Below the pieces are notes generated by a model. It searched no databases, was not told where the DNA came from, and was given only the letters and a program-made list of their open reading frames with translations. DNA of 64,000 bases. Source: Candidatus Omnitrophota bacterium. Lineage in GTDB: Bacteria; Omnitrophota; Gorgyraeia; 2-01-FULL-45-10. Below are positions 224-8,567 of this stretch, in pieces. The position numbers were made by a program, and so were the translations under genes. Within the stretch, counting starts at the first letter, position 1. Each line of letters opens with the position of its first letter. The stretch lies in the NCBI GenBank assembly GCA_030695905.1, contig JAUYOL010000043.1:64998-128997 (forward strand), given 5' to 3'.

Positions 224-269
224 AAAAAAATAACGCCCATCTTGGCAGCTGCTATTTCCAAAATGAACG
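224..269 (-). terminator. terminator-like hairpin plus U-run, either the glnK1 3' terminator or a glnN leader attenuator
   Basis: Minus strand: CGTTCATTTTGG-(12 nt loop)-CCAAGATGGGCG forms a 12-bp stem with 3 G-U pairs, followed by TTATTTTTTTG. Confidence 0.4.
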
Positions 270-293
270 CCTGTGTTCCACTTTAATATTGTA

Positions 294-307
294 GCACTAC
301 TTTGTGC
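294..307 (-). promoter_or_regulatory. conserved hairpin P1: GCAC-AAAGTA-GTGC, 13 nt downstream of motif copy A
   Basis: 4-bp stem with a hexaloop carrying A at position 1 and G at position 4. The same architecture follows motif copies B and C. Confidence 0.45.
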
Positions 308-320
308 GGCATTACTATAC

Positions 321-351
321 ATACAAGTAAAAACGGAGGCGTTTTGGTAAC
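321..351 (-). promoter_or_regulatory. conserved 31-nt motif copy A (minus strand GTTACCAAAA-N8-TTTTTACTTGTAT), upstream of glnN
   Basis: Plus strand ATACAAGTAAAAA-CGGAGGCG-TTTTGGTAAC. The 13- and 10-nt flanks are identical in all three copies and only the central 8 nt vary. Confidence 0.6.
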
Positions 352-692
352 TACCCTATAGCTTCCTGTCCCCTCTCGCCCGTTCTTATCCTTATGCACT
401 CTTCGAGGTTCAGCACAAATATCTTTCCGTCGCCTATATTGCCCGTCTTAGCGGCCTTACTGATTGCGGCTATAGTGGGTTCCACAAATTTCTCATTTAC
501 TGCGATCTCAAGCCTTACTTTTTTTAGCAGATTTCCAGTTTCTTTTCTGCCACGGTATATTTGAGTTATTCCTTTTTGCCTTCCGCATCCCAGGACGTTG
601 GAAACAGTTTTAAGATGTATTTCGCACTTGTCCAGCTCCTGCAGGACATCTTCAAGTTTATGCGGCTGAATAACAGCGACTACTAACTTCAT
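351..692 (-). CDS. glnK: nitrogen regulatory protein P-II (GlnK, copy 1)
   Basis: 113 aa starting [10 protein letters not shown] with the T-loop RGRKE; lies downstream of amtB. Confidence 0.9.
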
Positions 693-703
693 ATTGTCCC
701 CCT

Positions 704-1939
704 TTAGTCGAGCAGTGTATACGCGCTCTCCTCATGCTGTGTTATATCAAGGCCTATTACCTCTTCCTCATCCTCGACTCTTAGACCCATAACAGCATCA
801 AGAACCTTTAGCAGAACAAACGTAATGGCTATAGAATAAACCATTACTGCCAGAACACCAGTTGATTGTATCATAAATTGATTTTGATTTCCAAAAAATA
901 AGCCATTGTTACCAGCCGGGTTAATTATTTTTTGCGCAAGCAATCCTGTTGCCAATGCTCCAACAGCTCCTCCGACACCATGCACGCCGAAAGCGTCGAG
1001 AGAGTCGTCATATGAAAATTTCAGTTTTATAATAGCTACGGCAGTGTAACACAATAATGCCGCCGCGATGCCTATCAATATGGCAGACATGGGAGAGACA
1101 AATCCCGACGCGGGTGTTATAGTGGCCAGGCCCGCGACAGCGCCTGTGGCGCCGCCCAGAAGGGTCGGCTTGCCGGTTGCTCTCCACTCTATAAACATCC
1201 ACGTAAGCGCTGCTGATGAAGCGGCTGCATTAGTAGCTACAAACGCCCATACCGCTAATCCATTTGCCGCGAGAGAGCTTCCTGCGTTAAAGCCGAACCA
1301 ACCGAACCAGAGCAACCCCGCTCCAATGATAGTTAGCGGCAGATTATGCGGAGGCATAGGTTCCCGTCCATAACCCCGCCTCTTACCTAATATAAGAGCA
1401 CACACTAAAGCTGATACTCCGCTTGATACGTGTACTACTATCCCACCGGCAAAATCCAATACTCCCTTATTCCTTAGCCAACCGCCCTCGCCCCATACCC
1501 AATGACATACGGGATCGTATACAAGAGTGGCCCATAACAAGGTAAAGACAACATAAGTTGAAAATTTCATTCTTTCGGCGAATGCTCCGGCTATCAGGCC
1601 GGGCGTTATGACTGCGAACATCATCTGGTACGCCATGAAAAGAAGGTGTGGTATCGTTGATGAGTAAGTAGGGTTGGGCTCTATTCCAACGCCTTTTAAA
1701 CCCATCCATGCCAGGTTTCCTATAAAATGGCCCTGGTCGGGGCCAAAACTTAAACTGTATCCGCATAACATCCATTGAATACTGATAAGGCACAATACGA
1801 AAAAAGATTGCATCATCGTCGCCAAGACATTTTTTCTTCTTACCAACCCGCCGTAAAATAGTGCCAGTCCGGGTATCGTCATAAGCATAACCAGCGCCGT
1901 AGACATCAAAATCCACGCCGTATCGCCAGAATTTATCAT
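704..1939 (-). CDS. amtB: ammonium transporter Amt (copy 1)
   Basis: 411 aa with multiple TM helices and the Amt signature [10 protein letters not shown] ... DFAGG.VVH.SSG. Confidence 0.9.
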
Positions 1940-1985
1940 AATTTATCCTCTCTTGTATTCAACTGCGTAATCAATTGAGCAAATT

Positions 1986-2035
1986 TAAATAAAAAAATAG
2001 CGCGCACCTTGTTGAGCACAACATTGTGCACGCTA
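1986..2035 (-). terminator. amtB1 leader terminator/attenuator: TAGCGTGCAC ... GTGCGCGCTA plus TTTTTTTATTTAAATTT
   Basis: 10-bp stem with 1 mismatch followed by a U-run, about 45 nt before the RBS and ATG. Its 5' arm overlaps hairpin P1 (2016-2029), so the two structures are mutually exclusive. Confidence 0.5.
2016..2029 (-). promoter_or_regulatory. conserved hairpin P1: GCAC-AATGTT-GTGC, 11 nt downstream of motif copy B
   Basis: Hexaloop with A at position 1 and G at position 4. As DNA it is also a GCAC-N6-GTGC palindrome. Confidence 0.45.
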
Positions 2036-2040
2036 TTGCT

Positions 2041-2071
2041 ATACAAGTAAAAAAGATAGATTTTTGGTAAC
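2041..2071 (-). promoter_or_regulatory. conserved 31-nt motif copy B, upstream of amtB1-glnK1
   Basis: Plus strand ATACAAGTAAAAA-AGATAGAT-TTTTGGTAAC. Confidence 0.6.
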
Positions 2072-2158
2072 CAATTTCGCTTTGCGAAATTGGCCCTGAG
2101 CGAGCCATGAAATCCGACTTTATAGGAGGATTTCAGGCGAGCCGAAGGACCTTTCCAC

Positions 2159-2512
2159 TCATCCTATCGCTACGCCATCTCTTTCACCCGTCCTTATTCT
2201 CACGCACTCCGCAAGATCCAATACGAATATCTTCCCATCACCTATATTGCCTGTTTTTGCGCCCTTTGTTATGGCCAATACCGTAGCTTCAACATATTTT
2301 TCATTTACAGCGATCTCGAGCCTTACCTTTTTCAGAAGGTTGCCCGTCTCCTTTTTGCCTCTATATACTTCGGTTTTACCTTTTTGCCTTCCGCACCCCA
2401 GGACATTGCTTACGGTCTTTAGGTGTACCTCCGCCCTATCCAGTTCCTGCAGGACATCTTCAAGTTTATGTGGTTGAATAATCGCGATTATAAGCTTCAT
2501 ATAAAACGTCAC
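2159..2512 (-). CDS. glnK: nitrogen regulatory protein P-II (GlnK, copy 2)
   Basis: 117 aa, about 80% identical to copy 1. Confidence 0.9.
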
Positions 2513-2518
2513 CTCCTC

Positions 2519-3754
2519 TTAGTCTAACAGCGTATATGCACTCTCTTCATGCTGTGTTATATCAAGGCCTATTACCTCTTCCTCATCCTCGACTCTTAGA
2601 CCCATAACAGCATCAAGGACCTTTAATAATATAAAGGTCACGGCCACCGAATATGCCATCGTGGCTAAAACACCGATTGCCTGGGTAGCGAATTGCGCTG
2701 AATTTCCAAAAAACAACCCATTATTTCCAGCGGCATTTACTATCTTTTGCGCAAATAAACCTGTTGCAAGCGCTCCCAACGTTCCTCCTACACCATGAAC
2801 ACCAAAAGCATCGAGTGAGTCATCGTAGCCGAATTTTAATTTGATAACAGCTACAGCTGTATAGCAAACAAGTCCTACCAGAATCCCTATAAGGATCGAC
2901 GACAGAGGTGTTACGAATCCCGCTGCGGGAGTAATTGCAACAAGTCCCGCTACGGCGCCGGTTGCTCCGCCAAGTATTGTTGGTTTTCCGGTAACTTTCC
3001 ACTCTATGATCATCCATGTCAACGCGGCTGCAGCTGCGGCGGTATTTGTGGCGATAAAAGCCGAGACCGCGAGCTCGTTTGCACCTAAAGCGCTGCCGGC
3101 GTTAAATCCAAACCAGCCAAACCACAAAAGGGCCGCGCCGATCAGACATAAAGGAAGATTGTGCGGCGGCATAGGTTCTTGGCCGTAGCCCCTCCTCTTA
3201 CCCATATATAGGGCGCACACGAGCGCCGATATACCGCTTGATACGTGAACTACCGTGCCCCCCGCGAAATCCAAAGCGCCCATATTTCTTAACCATCCGC
3301 CCGCTCCCCACACCCAGTGGCAGACAGGATCATAAACAAGCGTCGCCCATAATAGGGTAAAGACAACGTAGGTTGAAAACTTCATTCTCTCCGCAAAGGC
3401 GCCTGTTATTAGGCCCGGCGTAATTACCGCGAACATCATCTGATAAATCATGAAAAGAAGATGCGGGATAGTTGAGGCATAATCCGGATTGGGGGCCATT
3501 CCTACACCCTTTAAACCCATCCATGCCAGGCTTCCTATAAAATGGCCCTGATCGGGACCAAAGGACAGACTGTACCCAAAAAGCACCCATTGAATACTGA
3601 TAAGGCACAGTACGAAAAAAGACTGCATTATTGTGGCGAGGACGTTTTTACGCCTTACCAGTCCTCCATAAAACAGCGCAAGGCCCGGGAATGTCATTAA
3701 CATGACAAGCGCAGTCGATATTAAGACCCATGCTGTATCGCCTGAATTAATCAT
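2519..3754 (-). CDS. amtB: ammonium transporter Amt (copy 2)
   Basis: 411 aa, about 85% identical to copy 1. GGAGG RBS upstream of the ATG. Confidence 0.9.
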   Translation of the reverse strand: MINSGDTAWVLISTALVMLMTFPGLALFYGGLVRRKNVLATIMQSFFVLCLISIQWVLFGYSLSFGPDQGHFIGSLAWMGLKGVGMAPNPDYASTIPHLLFMIYQMMFAVITPGLITGAFAERMKFSTYVVFTLLWATLVYDPVCHWVWGAGGWLRNMGALDFAGGTVVHVSSGISALVCALYMGKRRGYGQEPMPPHNLPLCLIGAALLWFGWFGFNAGSALGANELAVSAFIATNTAAAAAALTWMIIEWKVTGKPTILGGATGAVAGLVAITPAAGFVTPLSSILIGILVGLVCYTAVAVIKLKFGYDDSLDAFGVHGVGGTLGALATGLFAQKIVNAAGNNGLFFGNSAQFATQAIGVLATMAYSVAVTFILLKVLDAVMGLRVEDEEEVIGLDITQHEESAYTLLD

Positions 3755-3769
3755 AGCTACCTCCTCTTT

Positions 3770-3949
3770 TTATTTTATATCCAGTTTTTCTTTGACCATT
3801 TCTGCGTATACTTTATTTATGCGGCCAGTTTTTAGCCATCTCTCTAATGTCGACACCTGTATATTTATCTTCACAGAAAGATCATGCAGCGTATAGTCAT
3901 TTTCTTCTTTAATTTGCTGTATTTTTTTAATTAATTCTTTATCAATCAT
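3770..3949 (-). CDS. small 59-aa HTH-like protein, not in the ORF track
   Basis: Translates to MIDKELIKKIQQIKEENDYTLHDLSVKINIQVSTLERWLKTGRINKVYAEMVKEKLDIK. The segment TLHDLSVKINIQVSTLERW looks like a helix-turn-helix. Its stop lies 16 nt before the amtB2 start. Confidence 0.4.
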   Translation of the reverse strand: MIDKELIKKIQQIKEENDYTLHDLSVKINIQVSTLERWLKTGRINKVYAEMVKEKLDIK

Positions 3950-3969: not shown

Positions 3970-5226
3970 CTAAAAAGTGATGAGCGCGTCCATGCTGAAT
4001 GTCAGCTGATCCCTCTTGCCGGTGCTAAATACTGATCTGTCAGAGTGGTCATAACGAATTTCCGGCCGAAACAACAAGTTGGATAGTACCTTGTCTTTTG
4101 GGAACGGCTTTATTGCTACGCCTGCGGTTACCTCATAGTAGTTGGCGCCGACAGGAGCGGCGTTAGAAAAACCGCTGGCTGCATCTTTATACCACTCCAG
4201 TCGGGTATTCAGAGTAAAATACTGATTAAGCGCATAGCTAGCATATCCGGCCACACCCCCCCACTGCTTGACCTTATCTTGCGATCCGGGGATCTTTGGA
4301 GTCACAACGTAGTCAGTGCCCAGGCCGAGGCTTAATTTATCATTGATCTTATGTGTTATAACTAAATCCATGGCTGTCCACCAGTTGGCGCTGTCACCCG
4401 TAGGAAGATTGTGTCCGACACCGATCGGGAATTCAGGGCCTTCCGTCATCGTAAAGATGGCGGTAGTCTTGTCGCTGGGTGTAAAGGTTACACGGCCCAA
4501 TAGATCCAAAGCATGGTTGGCATCTCGCAGCGACTGGTTCCATCCCAGCGTTGTGCCAAGGTCAAACGTCCATTGCGGGTTCATTATATAGGTGGCCAGA
4601 ACGCCCGTCTGCGTACCCGGCTCAGCATAGAGAAACTGGTAACTATAAGAATAGAATGCCTTGGCAGGATCACCGAAAGCCCCGTAAATATTGGCGCTGA
4701 ATTGTTCAAATCCGGCCAACTCGATCCACTTACCTACTCTAAGCCGTACAGGTATATAAGGAAGAGCCATATCCGCGTAAGCTTGGAGAAGGTCCCATTG
4801 ATTATGACCCGTTTGGGTATCCCACATGCCATTAGAGTGTATGAAGGCAGCGTCCGCGCCAAAGATGCCCTCCATGCGCCCGCCTATGTCAAACTGCTTC
4901 TTGGTCGGATCTACCGTGCGTTCGACGTTCAAGCTGACCTTATTAAGGGTTATGTCGCTTTTGAAGTTGTTATATCCGATGAAGGTCGGCCCTACGCCTT
5001 CCTGAGGCGCTGTAGCGTCATAAAACCAGCCCGCCTGGGTGTATCCATAGATCTTAATGCCGAGCTTATCTAAAGGTTTGGCTAAACCCACCTTGTCCAT
5101 GCCGGTCATAAGCAGCCCTCTCGACGGCGCAGTTAGAACATCCTCATCGGCATATACCCAGGAATGCGCTTGCGAGTACACAAGGAATGATACCAATATT
5201 AAAGTAATTTTTTTAATCAGTTCCAT
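3970..5226 (-). CDS. outer-membrane beta-barrel (porin-like) protein
   Basis: 418 aa with a signal peptide, alternating amphipathic strands and a C-terminal ...ALITF with terminal Phe. It is the first gene of the transcription unit leading into amtB2-glnK2. Confidence 0.55.
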   Translation of the reverse strand: MELIKKITLILVSFLVYSQAHSWVYADEDVLTAPSRGLLMTGMDKVGLAKPLDKLGIKIYGYTQAGWFYDATAPQEGVGPTFIGYNNFKSDITLNKVSLNVERTVDPTKKQFDIGGRMEGIFGADAAFIHSNGMWDTQTGHNQWDLLQAYADMALPYIPVRLRVGKWIELAGFEQFSANIYGAFGDPAKAFYSYSYQFLYAEPGTQTGVLATYIMNPQWTFDLGTTLGWNQSLRDANHALDLLGRVTFTPSDKTTAIFTMTEGPEFPIGVGHNLPTGDSANWWTAMDLVITHKINDKLSLGLGTDYVVTPKIPGSQDKVKQWGGVAGYASYALNQYFTLNTRLEWYKDAASGFSNAAPVGANYYEVTAGVAIKPFPKDKVLSNLLFRPEIRYDHSDRSVFSTGKRDQLTFSMDALITF

Positions 5227-5249: not shown

Positions 5250-5295
5250 AAATAAAAAAAGCGTCTTATTTATCCACATGGATCAATAAGACGCC
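5250..5295 (-). terminator. porin leader terminator-like hairpin T2: GGCGTCTTATT-(14 nt)-AATAAGACGC plus TTTTTTTATTT
   Basis: 10-bp perfect stem followed by a U-run, ending about 20 nt before the AAAGGAG RBS. Confidence 0.55.
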
Positions 5296-5304
5296 AATGT
5301 CCTA

Positions 5305-5337
5305 AAATTTAAATAAAAAAGCGCTCTTTTCGAACGC
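5305..5337 (-). terminator. porin leader terminator-like hairpin T1: GCGTTC-GAAAA-GAGCGC plus TTTTTTATTTAAATTTT
   Basis: The 3' flank GCGCTTTTTTATTTAAATTT is nearly identical to the amtB1 leader flank GCGCTATTTTTTTATTTAAATTT. Confidence 0.45.
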
Positions 5338-5349
5338 CTTAGTTTATCA

Positions 5350-5363
5350 ACACAACTATGTGT
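5350..5363 (-). promoter_or_regulatory. conserved hairpin P1: ACAC-ATAGTT-GTGT, 13 nt downstream of motif copy C
   Basis: Same stem-hexaloop architecture, with A at loop position 1 and G at position 4. Confidence 0.45.
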
Positions 5364-5376
5364 CTTAATGCTACTC

Positions 5377-5407
5377 ATACAAGTAAAAAGAGCTTAGTTT
5401 TGGTAAC
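5377..5407 (-). promoter_or_regulatory. conserved 31-nt motif copy C, upstream of the porin-HTH-amtB2-glnK2 unit
   Basis: Plus strand ATACAAGTAAAAA-GAGCTTAG-TTTTGGTAAC. It overlaps the last 4 codons and stop of the sigma factor gene. Confidence 0.6.
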
Positions 5408-5933
5408 TCCTTTTTATCTCGCATCTCAGTTTCTCGCATTTTGCCCTGATCTTTTTCCTTAATTTTATCACGGCGACGTGTGAAATGCCAAGCTTTTCAC
5501 CCATTTCACGCACTGTCAGGCCGTCGGTGCTCATTTTTATAATAGCGATTTCCCTGTCATTAAGGTCATTTTTATAGGCTTCATCATATAATATTTTGTC
5601 CTCAACCTGTTCTTCACAGGACGATTCGTTTAAAGCTAATACTTCTTCGAGCATAGTTCCGTCTTCATCTATGGGGCTTTCGATGCTCTGGATCTTTACT
5701 TTATCCATGGATGTCCTTATGTAATTCTTAAGATGAAAGTAGCAGCCCTGCAATATATAGCTGTCCGTTTTATCATCAAGGATGCCCTTGCCAGACTTGA
5801 TCCATAGATGGATAACCGCCTCCTGGTATAGGTCATCATCGTTAAAGAACGTAAAATGACCGTTGAGCCGATGACTTATCCTTCGGATCGTAGGCGTAAG
5901 TCTGGTTATTAATGTTTCGAAATTATCTTTCAT
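5394..5933 (-). CDS. ECF-type (sigma-24-like) RNA polymerase sigma factor
   Basis: 179 aa. A region-2-like segment DDLYQEAVIHLW...YFHLKNYIRT and a region-4 HTH LTVREMGEKLGISHVAVIKLRKKIRAK. Confidence 0.55.
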   Translation of the reverse strand: MKDNFETLITRLTPTIRRISHRLNGHFTFFNDDDLYQEAVIHLWIKSGKGILDDKTDSYILQGCYFHLKNYIRTSMDKVKIQSIESPIDEDGTMLEEVLALNESSCEEQVEDKILYDEAYKNDLNDREIAIIKMSTDGLTVREMGEKLGISHVAVIKLRKKIRAKCEKLRCEIKRSYQN

Positions 5934-6025: not shown

Positions 6026-7705
6026 TTAATATTCTTTATACTTGTTCGTTATCGGCATTCTTCTATCTTTGCCGAATGACCTTGGCGTTATTCTTATGCC
6101 CGGCGGTGACTGCCTCCTCTTGTATTCGCTCTTATCGACCATAGCAACAACTCTCAAGACATCGTCTTTACTGCATCCCGAGGATATGATCTTCTTCATA
6201 TCGCGGTCATCTTCAACATACGCTTTGAGTATAGGATCTAATTTGCTGTAAACCGGCAATGTATCGCTGTCTTTCTGATCGGGCTTGAGCTCCGCGGTGG
6301 GCTCTTTTGTTAAGACAGAATCCGGTATTATATGAGAAATAGAATTTCTATATTTGCAAAGCTTATAGACAAGGGTTTTTGGCACATCTTTTATTACCGC
6401 GAAGCCTCCTGCCATGTCTCCATACAGAGTGGCATAGCCGGTGCTCATTTCCGATTTATTTCCCGTAGTAAGGACGAGCCACCCAAATTTATTGGACAGG
6501 GCCATCAATATATTGCCTCTTATGCGCGCCTGCAGATTTTCCTCCGCTATGTTCTTTTCTGATCCAGCGAATAGCGATGATAAAGTAATAAGGTATAATT
6601 TAAATATCTGTTCTATGGAAATAGCCTCATATCTTATGCCTAAGTTACCAGCGACCTCTCTCGCGTCGTTTGCTGATTCTTGTGAAGAATATCGAGACGG
6701 CATGAATATGCCCGTTACGTTATCCTTGCCAAGGGCATCTACTGCCAACGCCGCTACTATGGCGGAGTCTACGCCACCGCTTAATCCAATGGCAACTTTT
6801 TTAAAACCATTCTTGTTTACATAATCCTTTAGTCCCAGCAGGAGCGCTTTATATGCCTCTTCCGCATTTTCTACCATGACAGCAACTTTATTTTTTAATA
6901 CAGAAGGTTTCTTATCTATCTTTTTCTTTATGGTCAATATTTTACTATCAGTTCTTCTGTGCGCAGCGTTTAAAGCAATATCCGCGAAAAGCAGCTCTTC
7001 TTCAAAAGCCTTGGCTCTCGCGATTATCCTGCCCTTATCGTTTGCCACCATACTGCGGCCGTCAAATACAAGTTCATCCTGTCCCCCTACCATATTTACG
7101 TAGGATATAAATATCTTGTTGCTTTTTGCCGCCTTCTGGATAACATTTTCTCTTTCCTTTATCTTTCCGATATGATAAGGAGAAGAGTTTATTGCGATCA
7201 TTACTTGAGCGCCGGCCAAAGCACACATTTTTACGGGCCCGGACTTATGCCATATGTCTTCACATATACTGAGTCCAAATACTATATTATCCATCTTAAA
7301 GATAAAAGGAGATTTACCCTGTTTAAAATAACGGACTTCGTCGAATACCCCATAATTGGGCAATAGCATCTTGTGGTATATACCGAGAATTCTTCCCTTA
7401 TATATTACCGCGGCGGCATTGTAAACATTGGCGCCCTTACTATCCGCGAAGCCGATTATAGCTGCTACATCCCCGACAGACTCGGCTATCTCCTTGAGTA
7501 TGTGCACATTTCGTTCGATAAAATGCGATTTAAAAAGCAGGTCCTCTGGCGGGTATCCGGTTATAGCCAACTCAGGGAAAGAGACTATGTCAGCTCCCGC
7601 ATTTTGAGCCTTATTTATACAGTCCATTATTTTCTCGGCGTTTAGATACAGGTCTCCTACTGTGCAATTAACCTGCGCTAAAGCCAATCGTATTGTTTTC
7701 TTCAT
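6026..7705 (-). CDS. nadE: glutamine-dependent NAD+ synthetase
   Basis: 559 aa. N-terminal CN-hydrolase/nitrilase domain plus a C-terminal NAD synthase domain with the PP-loop GLSGGVDSA. Confidence 0.85.
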   Translation of the reverse strand: MKKTIRLALAQVNCTVGDLYLNAEKIMDCINKAQNAGADIVSFPELAITGYPPEDLLFKSHFIERNVHILKEIAESVGDVAAIIGFADSKGANVYNAAAVIYKGRILGIYHKMLLPNYGVFDEVRYFKQGKSPFIFKMDNIVFGLSICEDIWHKSGPVKMCALAGAQVMIAINSSPYHIGKIKERENVIQKAAKSNKIFISYVNMVGGQDELVFDGRSMVANDKGRIIARAKAFEEELLFADIALNAAHRRTDSKILTIKKKIDKKPSVLKNKVAVMVENAEEAYKALLLGLKDYVNKNGFKKVAIGLSGGVDSAIVAALAVDALGKDNVTGIFMPSRYSSQESANDAREVAGNLGIRYEAISIEQIFKLYLITLSSLFAGSEKNIAEENLQARIRGNILMALSNKFGWLVLTTGNKSEMSTGYATLYGDMAGGFAVIKDVPKTLVYKLCKYRNSISHIIPDSVLTKEPTAELKPDQKDSDTLPVYSKLDPILKAYVEDDRDMKKIISSGCSKDDVLRVVAMVDKSEYKRRQSPPGIRITPRSFGKDRRMPITNKYKEY

Positions 7706-7725: not shown

Positions 7726-7751
7726 ACAAAATAAAAAATGCCTTCCGGCAT
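7726..7751 (-). terminator. nadE leader hairpin ATGCC-GGAA-GGCAT plus TTTTTTATTTTG (attenuator-like)
   Basis: Short 5-bp stem with a U-run, located between the promoter and the RBS. Confidence 0.35.
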
Positions 7752-7789
7752 ACTTTGCCAAAAGACATTCTTTGTCTACTACAATAAGT

Positions 7790-7817
7790 ATTATATCACA
7801 CTTCGGTAGTTTGTCAA
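7790..7817 (-). promoter_or_regulatory. near-consensus sigma70 promoter TTGACA-N16-TGaTATAAT for nadE
   Basis: Minus strand ttgacaaactaccgaagtgtgatataat. Confidence 0.55.
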
Positions 7818-7850: not shown

Positions 7851-8567
7851 TTATTTCTTTTTCATCGAGTCTATCAGGATGATAGCGTCCGCTATATCGC
7901 GCATGGAGCGCCTTGTATCCATACTCTGTCTTTGTATCTTCTTAAACGCTTCCTCTTCGGAAAGGCCCTGCTCTCTCATAAGGATACCCTTGGCCTTTTC
8001 AACGCTCTTCCTGGTTTCTAATTCTTCCTGTATTACCTTAGTCTTTACCATAAGTTCCGCATTTTCAATAACTATCGCAGCCTGGTTTGCCACAGAGAAC
8101 AGTATGTCTATCTCTTCCTTCGTGAACTTGTGCGGTTTTGAAGTATAGTTATTTAATACGCCTATTACCCTGCCCTTAACTGAAAGAGGAACGGATAGTA
8201 GAGATCTTAAGCCTTCCTTCTTTGCTATATCCTTATATTTATATTCCGTCTCTTTGGATATGTCGTATATTGCCTGCGGCTTATTTTCTAAAGCGGCCTT
8301 TCCGGCTATCCCTTCTCCTATATGCAGCGGCGGTTTTTTGTTGTATGTTTCGCTCATAGATTGAGTCGCTTTAAGCACAAGCGTTTTTGTCTTATCATCC
8401 ACCAGGCTTAAAGAGCATATCTTGGAATTCATGATCTCCGCGGTAACCGTTACGATAAGTTTTAGAATATCTTCCAGGTAGAGGTTTGAGGTAATAGTTC
8501 TGCTGACCTTGGAGATTGCCTCTAAGCGTTTCGCGTGAGATACTGCCCTGCTGTCCTTTTTTGCCAT
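7851..8567 (-). CDS. GAF-ANTAR regulatory protein (RNA-binding antiterminator family)
   Basis: 238 aa. N-terminal GAF-like region and a C-terminal ANTAR-like segment EKAKGILMREQGLSEEEAFKKIQRQSMDTRRSMRDIADAII. Confidence 0.6.
   Translation of the reverse strand: MAKKDSRAVSHAKRLEAISKVSRTITSNLYLEDILKLIVTVTAEIMNSKICSLSLVDDKTKTLVLKATQSMSETYNKKPPLHIGEGIAGKAALENKPQAIYDISKETEYKYKDIAKKEGLRSLLSVPLSVKGRVIGVLNNYTSKPHKFTKEEIDILFSVANQAAIVIENAELMVKTKVIQEELETRKSVEKAKGILMREQGLSEEEAFKKIQRQSMDTRRSMRDIADAIILIDSMKKK

Follow-up and report, generated by a model that had tools for sequence, protein, structure and literature searches.

The window analysed here is a 64,000-nucleotide stretch of contig JAUYOL010000043.1 from a Candidatus Omnitrophota bacterium (positions 64,998 to 128,997 of the forward strand; coordinates below count from the first letter of the stretch). 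Its minus strand carries two ammonium transporter operons, amtB2-glnK2 and amtB1-glnK1, and the leader of amtB1 contains a strong intrinsic terminator whose 5' arm overlaps a short hexaloop hairpin, P1, of the type bound by ANTAR proteins. We propose, with a probability of roughly 0.6, that this terminator is an antitermination switch controlled by a GAF-ANTAR protein encoded nearby, and that it is a one-hexaloop derivative of the dual-hexaloop design that would govern nitrogen-assimilation genes throughout the phylum. The structures, their conservation and covariation, the ANTAR loop signature, the gene content and the synteny are directly established. From them we infer binding by the protein, the signal that it senses, the promoter role of a conserved box upstream of P1, and the sufficiency of a single hexaloop.

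The amtB1 terminator and its overlap with P1

The leader of amtB1 comprises the following elements.

2158..1940, minus strand: spacer between glnK2 and amtB1, containing the terminator
2042..2071, minus strand: box GTTACCA-N13-TTTACTTGTA, a two-block promoter-like element (exact repeat)
2016..2029, minus strand: P1 hairpin GCAC-AAUGUU-GUGC, an ANTAR-type hexaloop with A1 = 2025 and G4 = 2022 (pattern and family profile)
1996..2037, minus strand: terminator hairpin, with a 12-bp AAUAGCGUGCAC/GUGCGCGCUAUU stem, an internal loop and a 5-bp UGUUG/CAACA stem; minimum free energy -24.6 kcal/mol
1991..1997, minus strand: U-tract (U7) of the terminator, read from the sequence; U6 at the same place in the related contig L103
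1960..1977, minus strand: CAATTG-ATTACG-CAGTTG, a palindrome or hexaloop hairpin between terminator and ribosome-binding site (pattern scan)
704..1939, minus strand: amtB1, the gene behind the leader (Pfam Ammonium_transp, 441 bits)

A preliminary description of this DNA had placed a 10-bp intrinsic terminator here, and the letters on the minus strand are exactly as it gave them: TAGCGTGCAC at 2035..2026, GTGCGCGCTA at 2007..1998, then TTTTTTT (1997..1991) and ATTTA. Folding shows that the proposed pairing is real but that the stem is longer, with 12 + 5 bp. The lower stem pairs AAUAGCGUGCAC (2037..2026) with GUGCGCGCUAUU (2007..1996) in 12 bp including one G-U, and above it an AA/AG internal loop leads to the 5-bp UGUUG/CAACA stem. 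A simple consensus terminator scan missed the hairpin on account of the internal loop, and it was recovered by folding. Its interrupted 17-bp stem, its stability of -24.6 kcal/mol and the U7 directly after it make it an intrinsic terminator. Far from being thermodynamically negligible, which the preliminary description had named as grounds for rejection, the structure stands out from its base composition: the 51-nt leader segment with flanks reaches -25.2 kcal/mol (z = -6.0), a stability matched by 0 of 200 shuffles. The amtB1 ribosome-binding site, GAGAGGA, lies about 40 nt past the U-tract, and the ATG is at 1939.

P1 has the short stem and the hexaloop with A1 and G4 that are expected of an ANTAR target. 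As had been proposed, its GCAC (2029..2026) lies inside the 5' arm of the terminator, and its loop and 3' arm span the upper stem. Formation of P1 costs the terminator 9 of its 17 pairs, namely the top four of the lower stem and the entire upper stem. Over these pairs the antiterminator is exclusive with the terminator, but through P1, whereas the canonical form uses the 3' side of a second hairpin, P2. In the folding model, P1 alone reaches -3.8 kcal/mol, with an equilibrium probability of ~1e-9 against the terminator. Because P1 cannot compete by itself, a protein would be needed to hold it, and P1 so held is predicted to weaken the terminator strongly without abolishing it. In ANTAR systems, antiterminator hairpins are always much weaker than the terminator, and the modelled energetics of the amtB1 leader match this logic.

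Two other hairpins in the leader were considered as a second hexaloop and rejected. GCA-AUAGCG-UGC, which has A1 and G4, overlaps P1 and is missing from L103, and UGUGCU-CAACAA-GGUGCG is not conserved there.

Canonical leaders in the window and across the phylum

ANTAR targets have been defined as two short hexaloop hairpins with A1 and G4, the second overlapping a terminator (Ramesh et al. 2012, PMC3369931). The window contains this full form before a porin operon and before a gene for type III glutamine synthetase (GS-III, glnA-type), and a related leader before nadE.

5254..5407, minus strand: porin-operon leader, canonical form (covariance model R1, 41.3 bits, E = 2.6e-9)
5407..5378, minus strand: box of the porin leader
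5363..5350, minus strand: porin P1, ACAC-AUAGUU-GUGU
5344..5333, minus strand: porin P2, AAC-UAAGGC-GUU
5340..5318 plus U-run, minus strand: porin terminator 1
5301..5290, minus strand: second P2-type hairpin of the porin leader, GAC-AUUGGC-GUC
5294..5261 plus U7, minus strand: porin terminator 2
224..351, minus strand: GS-III leader, canonical form
351..322, minus strand: box of the GS-III leader
307..294, minus strand: GS-III P1, GCAC-AAAGUA-GUGC
278..265, minus strand: GS-III P2, GAAC-ACAGGC-GUUC
270..233, minus strand: GS-III terminator, GCGUUCAUUUUGG/CCAAGAUGGGCGU plus U-run
7733..7817, minus strand: nadE leader, with a sigma-70-type promoter TTGACA-N16-TATAAT at 7817..7790 and no box
7776..7764, minus strand: P2-like hairpin of the nadE leader, GAC-AAAGAAU-GUC, with a 7-nt loop
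7767..7739, minus strand: nadE terminator plus U6 (-21.2 kcal/mol, z = -5.3)

The porin and GS-III leaders follow the canonical dual-hexaloop ANTAR design, because each has two hexaloop hairpins of which the second overlaps the terminator; in both, the 3' side of P2 is the beginning of the terminator 5' arm. The GS-III leader has an ortholog of identical layout at L003:18320. The P1 loops of the porin, amtB1 and GS-III leaders carry A1 and G4 in 3/3 cases, and the outer pair alternates between G-C and A-U. The same three leaders hold the only mismatch-free copies of the 30-nt box in the window (5407..5378, 2071..2042 and 351..322). With a sigma-70-type promoter in place of the box at nadE, the regulon covers two promoter types. 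In relatives, the place of the 7-nt-loop hairpin of the nadE leader is taken by one or two proper hairpins of the GAC-nnnGGC-GUC kind, with GAC-AAGGGU-GUC and GAC-UAAGGC-GUC there (L161, L164).

Two details of these leaders stand on their own. The porin leader has two tandem terminators (5254..5344), the second preceded by a P2-type hairpin only, without a P1 of its own, a layout that is common in porin-type leaders of other contigs. The nadE promoter reads TTGACA-N16-TGaTATAAT, and its terminator is a 12-bp stem rich in G-U pairs.

Homologs of the GAF-ANTAR protein, a box pattern scan of metagenomes and exact-protein look-ups gave us ~155 box-anchored leaders of Omnitrophota contigs, located before porin, amtB, glnK, GS-III and other genes. 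The pattern NCAC-N6-GUGN follows the box in 107 of them, which bears out the earlier description of P1 as a conserved hairpin. The fourth loop base, unconstrained by the search pattern, is G in all 107, and a purine occupies position 1 in 106 (A 78, G 28). Outer pairs of P1 are A-U in 43, G-C in 38, G-U in 23 and mismatched in 3 (Fisher p = 2e-11). Most box leaders also have P2 (AAC/GAC-nnnGGC-GUU/GUC) overlapping a terminator. Among P2-like hairpins the outer pairs are A-U 88, G-C 59 and G-U 13 (p = 1e-28), and 134/177 are overlapped by a terminator hairpin plus T-run (median -15.4 kcal/mol). These outer-pair statistics come from the regex-anchored leader set, in which the inner pairs are fixed by the search pattern. 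The covariance model R1, for which 30 short-linker leaders served as the input, found 57 sites at E < 1e-3; in its alignment 95.5% of cells are paired, compared with 12-50% when the partners are slid.

Judged by these sequence features, the box leaders as a family are very probably ANTAR targets. The amtB1 terminator lies downstream of a box that many Omnitrophota loci have kept, in agreement with the placement of the element in a leader. P1 had also been taken as the hairpin that overlaps the terminator. This is correct at amtB1, but in the family at large it is P2 that overlaps, as in the porin and glnA leaders and in the L003 ortholog of amtB1.

Origin and conservation of the short form

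Comparing orthologs provides a potential explanation for the unusual layout at amtB1. The L003 ortholog (AmtB1 92% identical; L003:16555) has a full leader, with P1 GCAC-AAUGCG-GUGC, a 16-nt linker, P2 GAAC-ACAGGC-GUUC and a terminator GCGUUCAUAUUGG...CCAAAAUGAGCGC followed by U8. The window leader is 47 nt shorter. Linker, P2 and old 5' arm are gone, and the 3' arm region (CAAGGUGCGCGC) is kept and pairs with AAUAGCGUGCAC, which runs into P1. The overlap of P1 with the terminator is a derived state that followed an apparent ~47-nt deletion, in which P2 was lost and the terminator re-paired across P1.

The short form is also present in metagenome contig L103, which has the same gene order as the window: amtB2 (92%), glnK2 (80%), box, short leader and amtB1 (93%). 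The terminator arms and P1 are identical at 32/32 bases (21 nt ATAGCGTGCACAATGTTGTGC and 11 nt GTGCGCGCTAT). The background has diverged: amtB1 retains 57% identity at its synonymous third positions, the spacer of the box matches at 5/13 bases, and the 5 nt that follow the box match at 0/5. Because the arms and P1 are unchanged at this level of synonymous identity, the short form is maintained by selection in two diverged lineages. Moreover, the 3' arm of P1, GUGC, is unchanged in L103 although it is placed entirely within the apical loop of the L103 terminator fold, where adjoining loop bases differ at 3/8 positions. Since GUGC is kept while unpaired and its neighbours have diverged, there is a modest argument that P1 itself is constrained, beyond the terminator.

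Other leaders of the family are reduced as well. Many GS-III leaders have P2 and a terminator right behind the box, without P1. Derivative leaders occur at L042:1860, L042:495, L051:3150, L064:912 and L149:917; of these, the amtB leader at L042:1860 has the box but neither hairpin nor terminator. Because several such derivatives exist, from P2-only GS-III leaders to the bare L042:1860, hairpin loss has occurred repeatedly among these leaders.

The GAF-ANTAR protein, the box and the sigma factor

Three genes lie upstream of the porin gene.

7851..8567, minus strand: GAF-ANTAR protein (Pfam ANTAR, PF03861, 77 bits; GAF_2, 79.5 bits)
7705..6026, minus strand: nadE, glutamine-dependent NAD synthase
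5394..5933, minus strand: extracytoplasmic function (ECF)-type sigma-70 family factor (TIGR02937, 53.2 bits against a cut-off of 42.9)

An ANTAR protein encoded nearby had been pointed out in the preliminary description, and the gene at 8567..7851 is indeed one, in conserved synteny. The protein has the one-component GAF-ANTAR architecture, with GAF_2 at residues 31-168 and ANTAR at residues 180-230, and tblastn of the window found no other ANTAR domain. Homologs that share 77-94% of its residues carry the label Candidatus Omnitrophota. No gaps are needed to align the ANTAR domain with Rv1626, EutV and NasR. In EutV, the residues R142, K143, K147, E160 and Y164 contact the flipped G4 and the loop backbone (PMC8934654); the window protein has R, K, K, E and F at these positions. 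Relatives keep a common gene order of a radical-SAM gene, GAF-ANTAR, nadE, sigma factor, outer-membrane protein, amtB, glnK, GS-III and gltB.

The GAF domain is closest to that of PtsP/EI-Ntr (E = 1.6e-12 in PDB, with 3trc and 3ci6 at ~1e-12; NCBIfam PtsP model, 68 bits) and to the N-terminal GAF domain of NifA (NCBIfam NifA model). The GAF domain of PtsP/EI-Ntr responds to glutamine and 2-oxoglutarate, and that of NifA to 2-oxoglutarate. The regulator would, by this similarity, sense nitrogen status directly.

The box is probably a promoter, judging from its two-block geometry, its 16-18 nt spacer and its link to the ECF-type sigma gene, which are the whole of its support. The gene directly upstream of the box encodes an ECF-type sigma factor in 49 of the ~155 leaders and glnK in 50. 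In the window, the sigma gene ends inside the first block of the porin box, where its final codons, Y-Q-N-stop, read TTACCAAAAC-TAA. The box may be the cognate promoter of this neighbouring sigma factor. Judged by eye, it fits none of the sigma-54, sigma-70, Bacteroidetes-type, NtcA or actinobacterial GlnR sites.

Proposed mechanism and competing explanations

We propose the following course of events. Transcription would either enter from amtB2-glnK2 or start at the box, which the neighbouring ECF-type sigma factor probably recognises as its promoter. By default the 17-bp hairpin with U7 would form and transcription would stop about 40 nt before the amtB1 ribosome-binding site. Under nitrogen limitation, the GAF domain would turn the ANTAR dimer on, and the dimer would grip the emerging P1 hexaloop via A2025 and G2022. 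With 2029..2016 held as P1, the terminator would lose the top of its lower stem and the whole upper stem; all that would remain is 8 A/U-rich base pairs below a 26-nt loop occupied by the protein, and polymerase would read through. In canonical leaders, P1 would be bound first and then the terminator-overlapping P2, whereas at amtB1, with P2 lost, P1 would act alone.

According to a structural study, the smallest target of an ANTAR dimer is one hexaloop, whose G4 flips onto Tyr164 and is also touched by Glu160, and the dimers are suggested to occupy P1 before P2 (Walshe et al. 2022, PMC8934654). Because the minimal target is a single hexaloop, one-hairpin ANTAR targets are plausible. We class the amtB1 leader as a variant with the proposed working of an ANTAR target and not as a canonical dual-hexaloop member, because P2, one of the defining features, is missing.

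Several results weigh against regulation through P1. A second hexaloop is absent at amtB1: R1 matches the P1 half only (9.4 bits, E ~1), and enumeration of hexaloop hairpins in the leader gave no second A1/G4 hairpin common to the window and L103. For EutV in vivo, deletion of P1 or mutation of P2 abolishes induction of eutP (PMC3369931). All P1 bases fall inside the terminator hairpin, and the terminator alone explains the conservation of most of them. The preliminary description had P1 precluding the terminator, which in constrained folding holds for 9 of the 17 pairs only. When P1 is forced, the lower 8 bp still stack underneath it (-12.9 kcal/mol), and when the P1 bases are blocked as if bound by protein, a residual 8-bp A/U-rich AAUAGCGU/GCGCUAUU stem with a 26-nt loop is left at -6.6 kcal/mol. 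This stem adjoins the U-tract, and termination might persist despite P1. At the level of the family, covariation in the R1 alignment is weak and confined to the outermost pairs, the inner pairs being invariant in sequence; such invariance is expected of a hairpin recognized by a protein, yet it limits the statistical proof of the structure. Finally, what the GAF domain might bind is guessed from its sequence relatives.

Much of this evidence could be accommodated by a switch that has decayed, a possibility that we consider unlikely but take seriously. After deletion of P2, the leader would hold an unregulated, possibly leaky terminator or attenuator that insulates amtB1-glnK1 from amtB2-glnK2 and keeps it at a low basal level, and P1 would persist only since its bases joined the new terminator stem. 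The need of EutV for both hairpins (PMC3369931), the inclusion of every P1 base in the terminator hairpin, the stem by the U-tract that survives P1 formation, the failure of R1 to find P2 at amtB1, and leaders stripped of all hairpins such as L042:1860 all agree with this. However, amtB1-glnK1 would be all but shut off by a terminator of -24.6 kcal/mol with U7 that directly follows the sole conserved promoter-like element, and these genes are intact, with AmtB1 93% conserved in L103. Decay also leaves unexplained why the A1/G4 loop and GUGC are unchanged when GUGC is unpaired in the L103 fold and neighbouring loop bases have diverged at 3/8. It also speaks against decay that ANTAR binding in vitro requires just one hexaloop (PMC8934654).

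Control by a regulator other than GAF-ANTAR, such as another RNA-binding protein, a small RNA or a metabolite-binding fold, is improbable. The neighbourhood of the ANTAR gene would then be coincidental, and the gene is in fact 6 kb off, with nadE and the sigma gene between it and the leaders. Still, its position beside the regulon is kept in relatives, and the nadE leader directly downstream of it has a P2-like hairpin-terminator unit. Hexaloops with an invariant G4 and a purine at position 1, on 3-4 bp stems over terminators, are the defining ANTAR signature. Rfam scans of the leaders returned no match at gathering thresholds, to a riboswitch or any other family, and the best permissive match was to an unrelated ctRNA (E ~3); a 51-nt leader is, moreover, too small for a known aptamer.

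A plain 3' terminator of the amtB2-glnK2 operon with the amtB1 promoter downstream, an alternative raised in the preliminary description, is very hard to sustain: the element does lie in the glnK2-amtB1 spacer, and in L103, whose box directly adjoins the glnK2 stop, it is the first terminator past glnK2 and would also block read-through from amtB2-glnK2, but it sits in a box-led leader, the box is upstream of the terminator at 3/3 window sites and in ~155 leaders, the order box-hairpin-terminator also precedes first operon genes such as the porin gene, where nothing but the sigma gene lies upstream to be terminated, the only downstream promoter-like match (1962..1935) overlaps the start codon, and the segment between terminator and ribosome-binding site is only ~40 nt and is taken up by the CAATTG palindrome.

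Relation to known systems

The kind of system proposed here is already known. ANTAR targets have been predicted upstream of P-II, ammonium transporter and glutamine/glutamate synthase genes in several phyla (PMC3369931), and in Geobacter sulfurreducens GnfR relieves terminators in nif leaders, with similar signals before glnK and amtB (Ueki and Lovley 2010, PMC2995071). As in EutV/eut (Enterococcus faecalis), NasR/nasF and AmiR/amiE, the Omnitrophota leaders have hexaloop hairpins with a purine at position 1 and G4 before or over the leader terminator, the ANTAR protein is encoded nearby, and nitrogen-metabolism genes are the proposed targets. The porin and GS-III leaders of the window match the full dual-hairpin design of EutV-type systems. 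The amtB1 leader differs in having one hexaloop, a homolog of P1 and not of P2, over the upper half of the terminator 5' side. In the Omnitrophota regulator, a GAF sensor takes the place of REC, NIT or the AmiC partner, and the Omnitrophota P2 loop has an extra conserved -GGC tail (nnAGGC) that EutV-type targets lack.

With GnfK/GnfR the system shares a conserved sequence over the terminator (CAGGCAANGGCGCC in Geobacter, nnAGGCGUUC in Omnitrophota) and, as proposed, a two-tier design in which a dedicated initiation regulator is combined with antitermination. GnfR, however, is a phosphorylated response regulator acting behind sigma-54/GnfM promoters, whereas the Omnitrophota system has a one-component GAF-ANTAR protein, an ECF-associated box and no nif genes. 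The regulons predicted in Desulfotomaculum and Pelobacter by covariance searches (Ramesh et al. 2012) likewise have several leader matches in one nitrogen-assimilation cluster; ours differs in phylum, in sensor domain and in its single-hairpin derivatives (P1-only, and P2-only in many GS-III and nadE leaders). The GAF domains of PtsP (EI-Ntr) and NifA are the nearest relatives of the Omnitrophota sensor in sequence, and the output here is an RNA-binding ANTAR domain instead of a phosphotransferase or a sigma-54 activator.

Our literature search found no account of ANTAR in Omnitrophota, and in the literature searched neither the regulon, nor a characterised GAF-ANTAR regulator, nor the linkage of an ECF-type sigma factor to the box, nor the single-hairpin derivatives are described. 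Although ANTAR control of nitrogen genes is widely predicted, all characterised cases involve REC-, NIT- or AmiC-linked regulators and a pair of hairpins. If our reading is true, three things are new. The first is a regulon that spans an uncultivated phylum with ultra-small cells and is driven by a GAF-ANTAR protein with a sensor similar to nitrogen-status GAF domains, and the second is a conserved promoter box linked to an ECF-type sigma factor. The third is the set of natural leaders reduced to one hairpin (P1 at amtB1, P2 in many GS-III and nadE leaders), which bear on the question of whether a single hexaloop suffices for antitermination in cells.

For that question, the full form in L003 and the short form in the window and L103 are a ready ortholog comparison, and the amtB1 leader, if it works as we propose, is an in vivo test of the single-hexaloop model from the EutV structures. 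If the short form is unregulated, the finding shrinks to an ordinary leader terminator within a known type of regulon. Beyond this, we tentatively suggest, as an idea somewhat more likely to fail than to hold, a hitherto undescribed two-tier nitrogen circuit in which a dedicated ECF-type sigma factor acts on the box promoter and a one-component antiterminator with PtsP-like GAF domain directly reads glutamine or 2-oxoglutarate, with amtB1 as a case of natural single-hexaloop antitermination. Such a circuit would cover porin, amtB, glnK, GS-III and nadE, plus gltB in relatives.

Other features of the locus

The genes in the leader and regulon part of the window are all on the minus strand. Those not listed above are as follows.

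5226..3970, minus strand: BBP2 porin
3770..3949, minus strand: 59-aa open reading frame between porin and amtB2, without family assignment
3754..2519, minus strand: amtB2
2500..2159, minus strand: glnK2
692..351, minus strand: glnK1, after amtB1 (Pfam P-II, 93 bits for its paralog)
137, minus strand: start of the GS-III gene, whose orthologs are type III glutamine synthetase

The 59-aa open reading frame has 64-67% identical counterparts at the same position in L069 and L155. The pairs amtB2-glnK2 and amtB1-glnK1 (351..3754) form a tandem duplication that L103 has too, and the AmtB proteins are 84% identical. The last ~90 nt of amtB1 and amtB2 and the first part of glnK1 and glnK2 are nearly identical in DNA, which suggests gene conversion between the tandem copies.

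Between the glnK2 stop and the box is an 87-nt segment (2158..2072) with two strong hairpins, one of them a 10-bp stem CCAAUUUCGC-AAA-GCGAAAUUGG. We found no further copy of it in the window or in the collected loci, and it is missing in L103, which has no gap between glnK2 stop and box; the segment is an insertion. A different, ~100-nt repeat (GAGCACAT...palindrome...ATAAGTGCGAA...), absent from the window, occurs within or after leader terminators in L093, L106, L155 and L161 (for example L161:9785..9900) and looks like a repetitive extragenic palindromic (REP)- or miniature inverted-repeat transposable element (MITE)-like element.

The CAATTG-N6-CAGTTG element between the amtB1 terminator and its ribosome-binding site reads as a palindrome and also forms a 7-bp hairpin whose hexaloop lacks G4. 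In the pattern scan it matched 8 of 21 amtB-proximal leaders and 0 of 138 others, and it is also present in distant amtB leaders (AmtB ~60% identical). From its end to the ATG is ~21-24 nt in all matched leaders except L125 (78 nt). It could be an amtB-specific operator or a 5'-stabilising hairpin.

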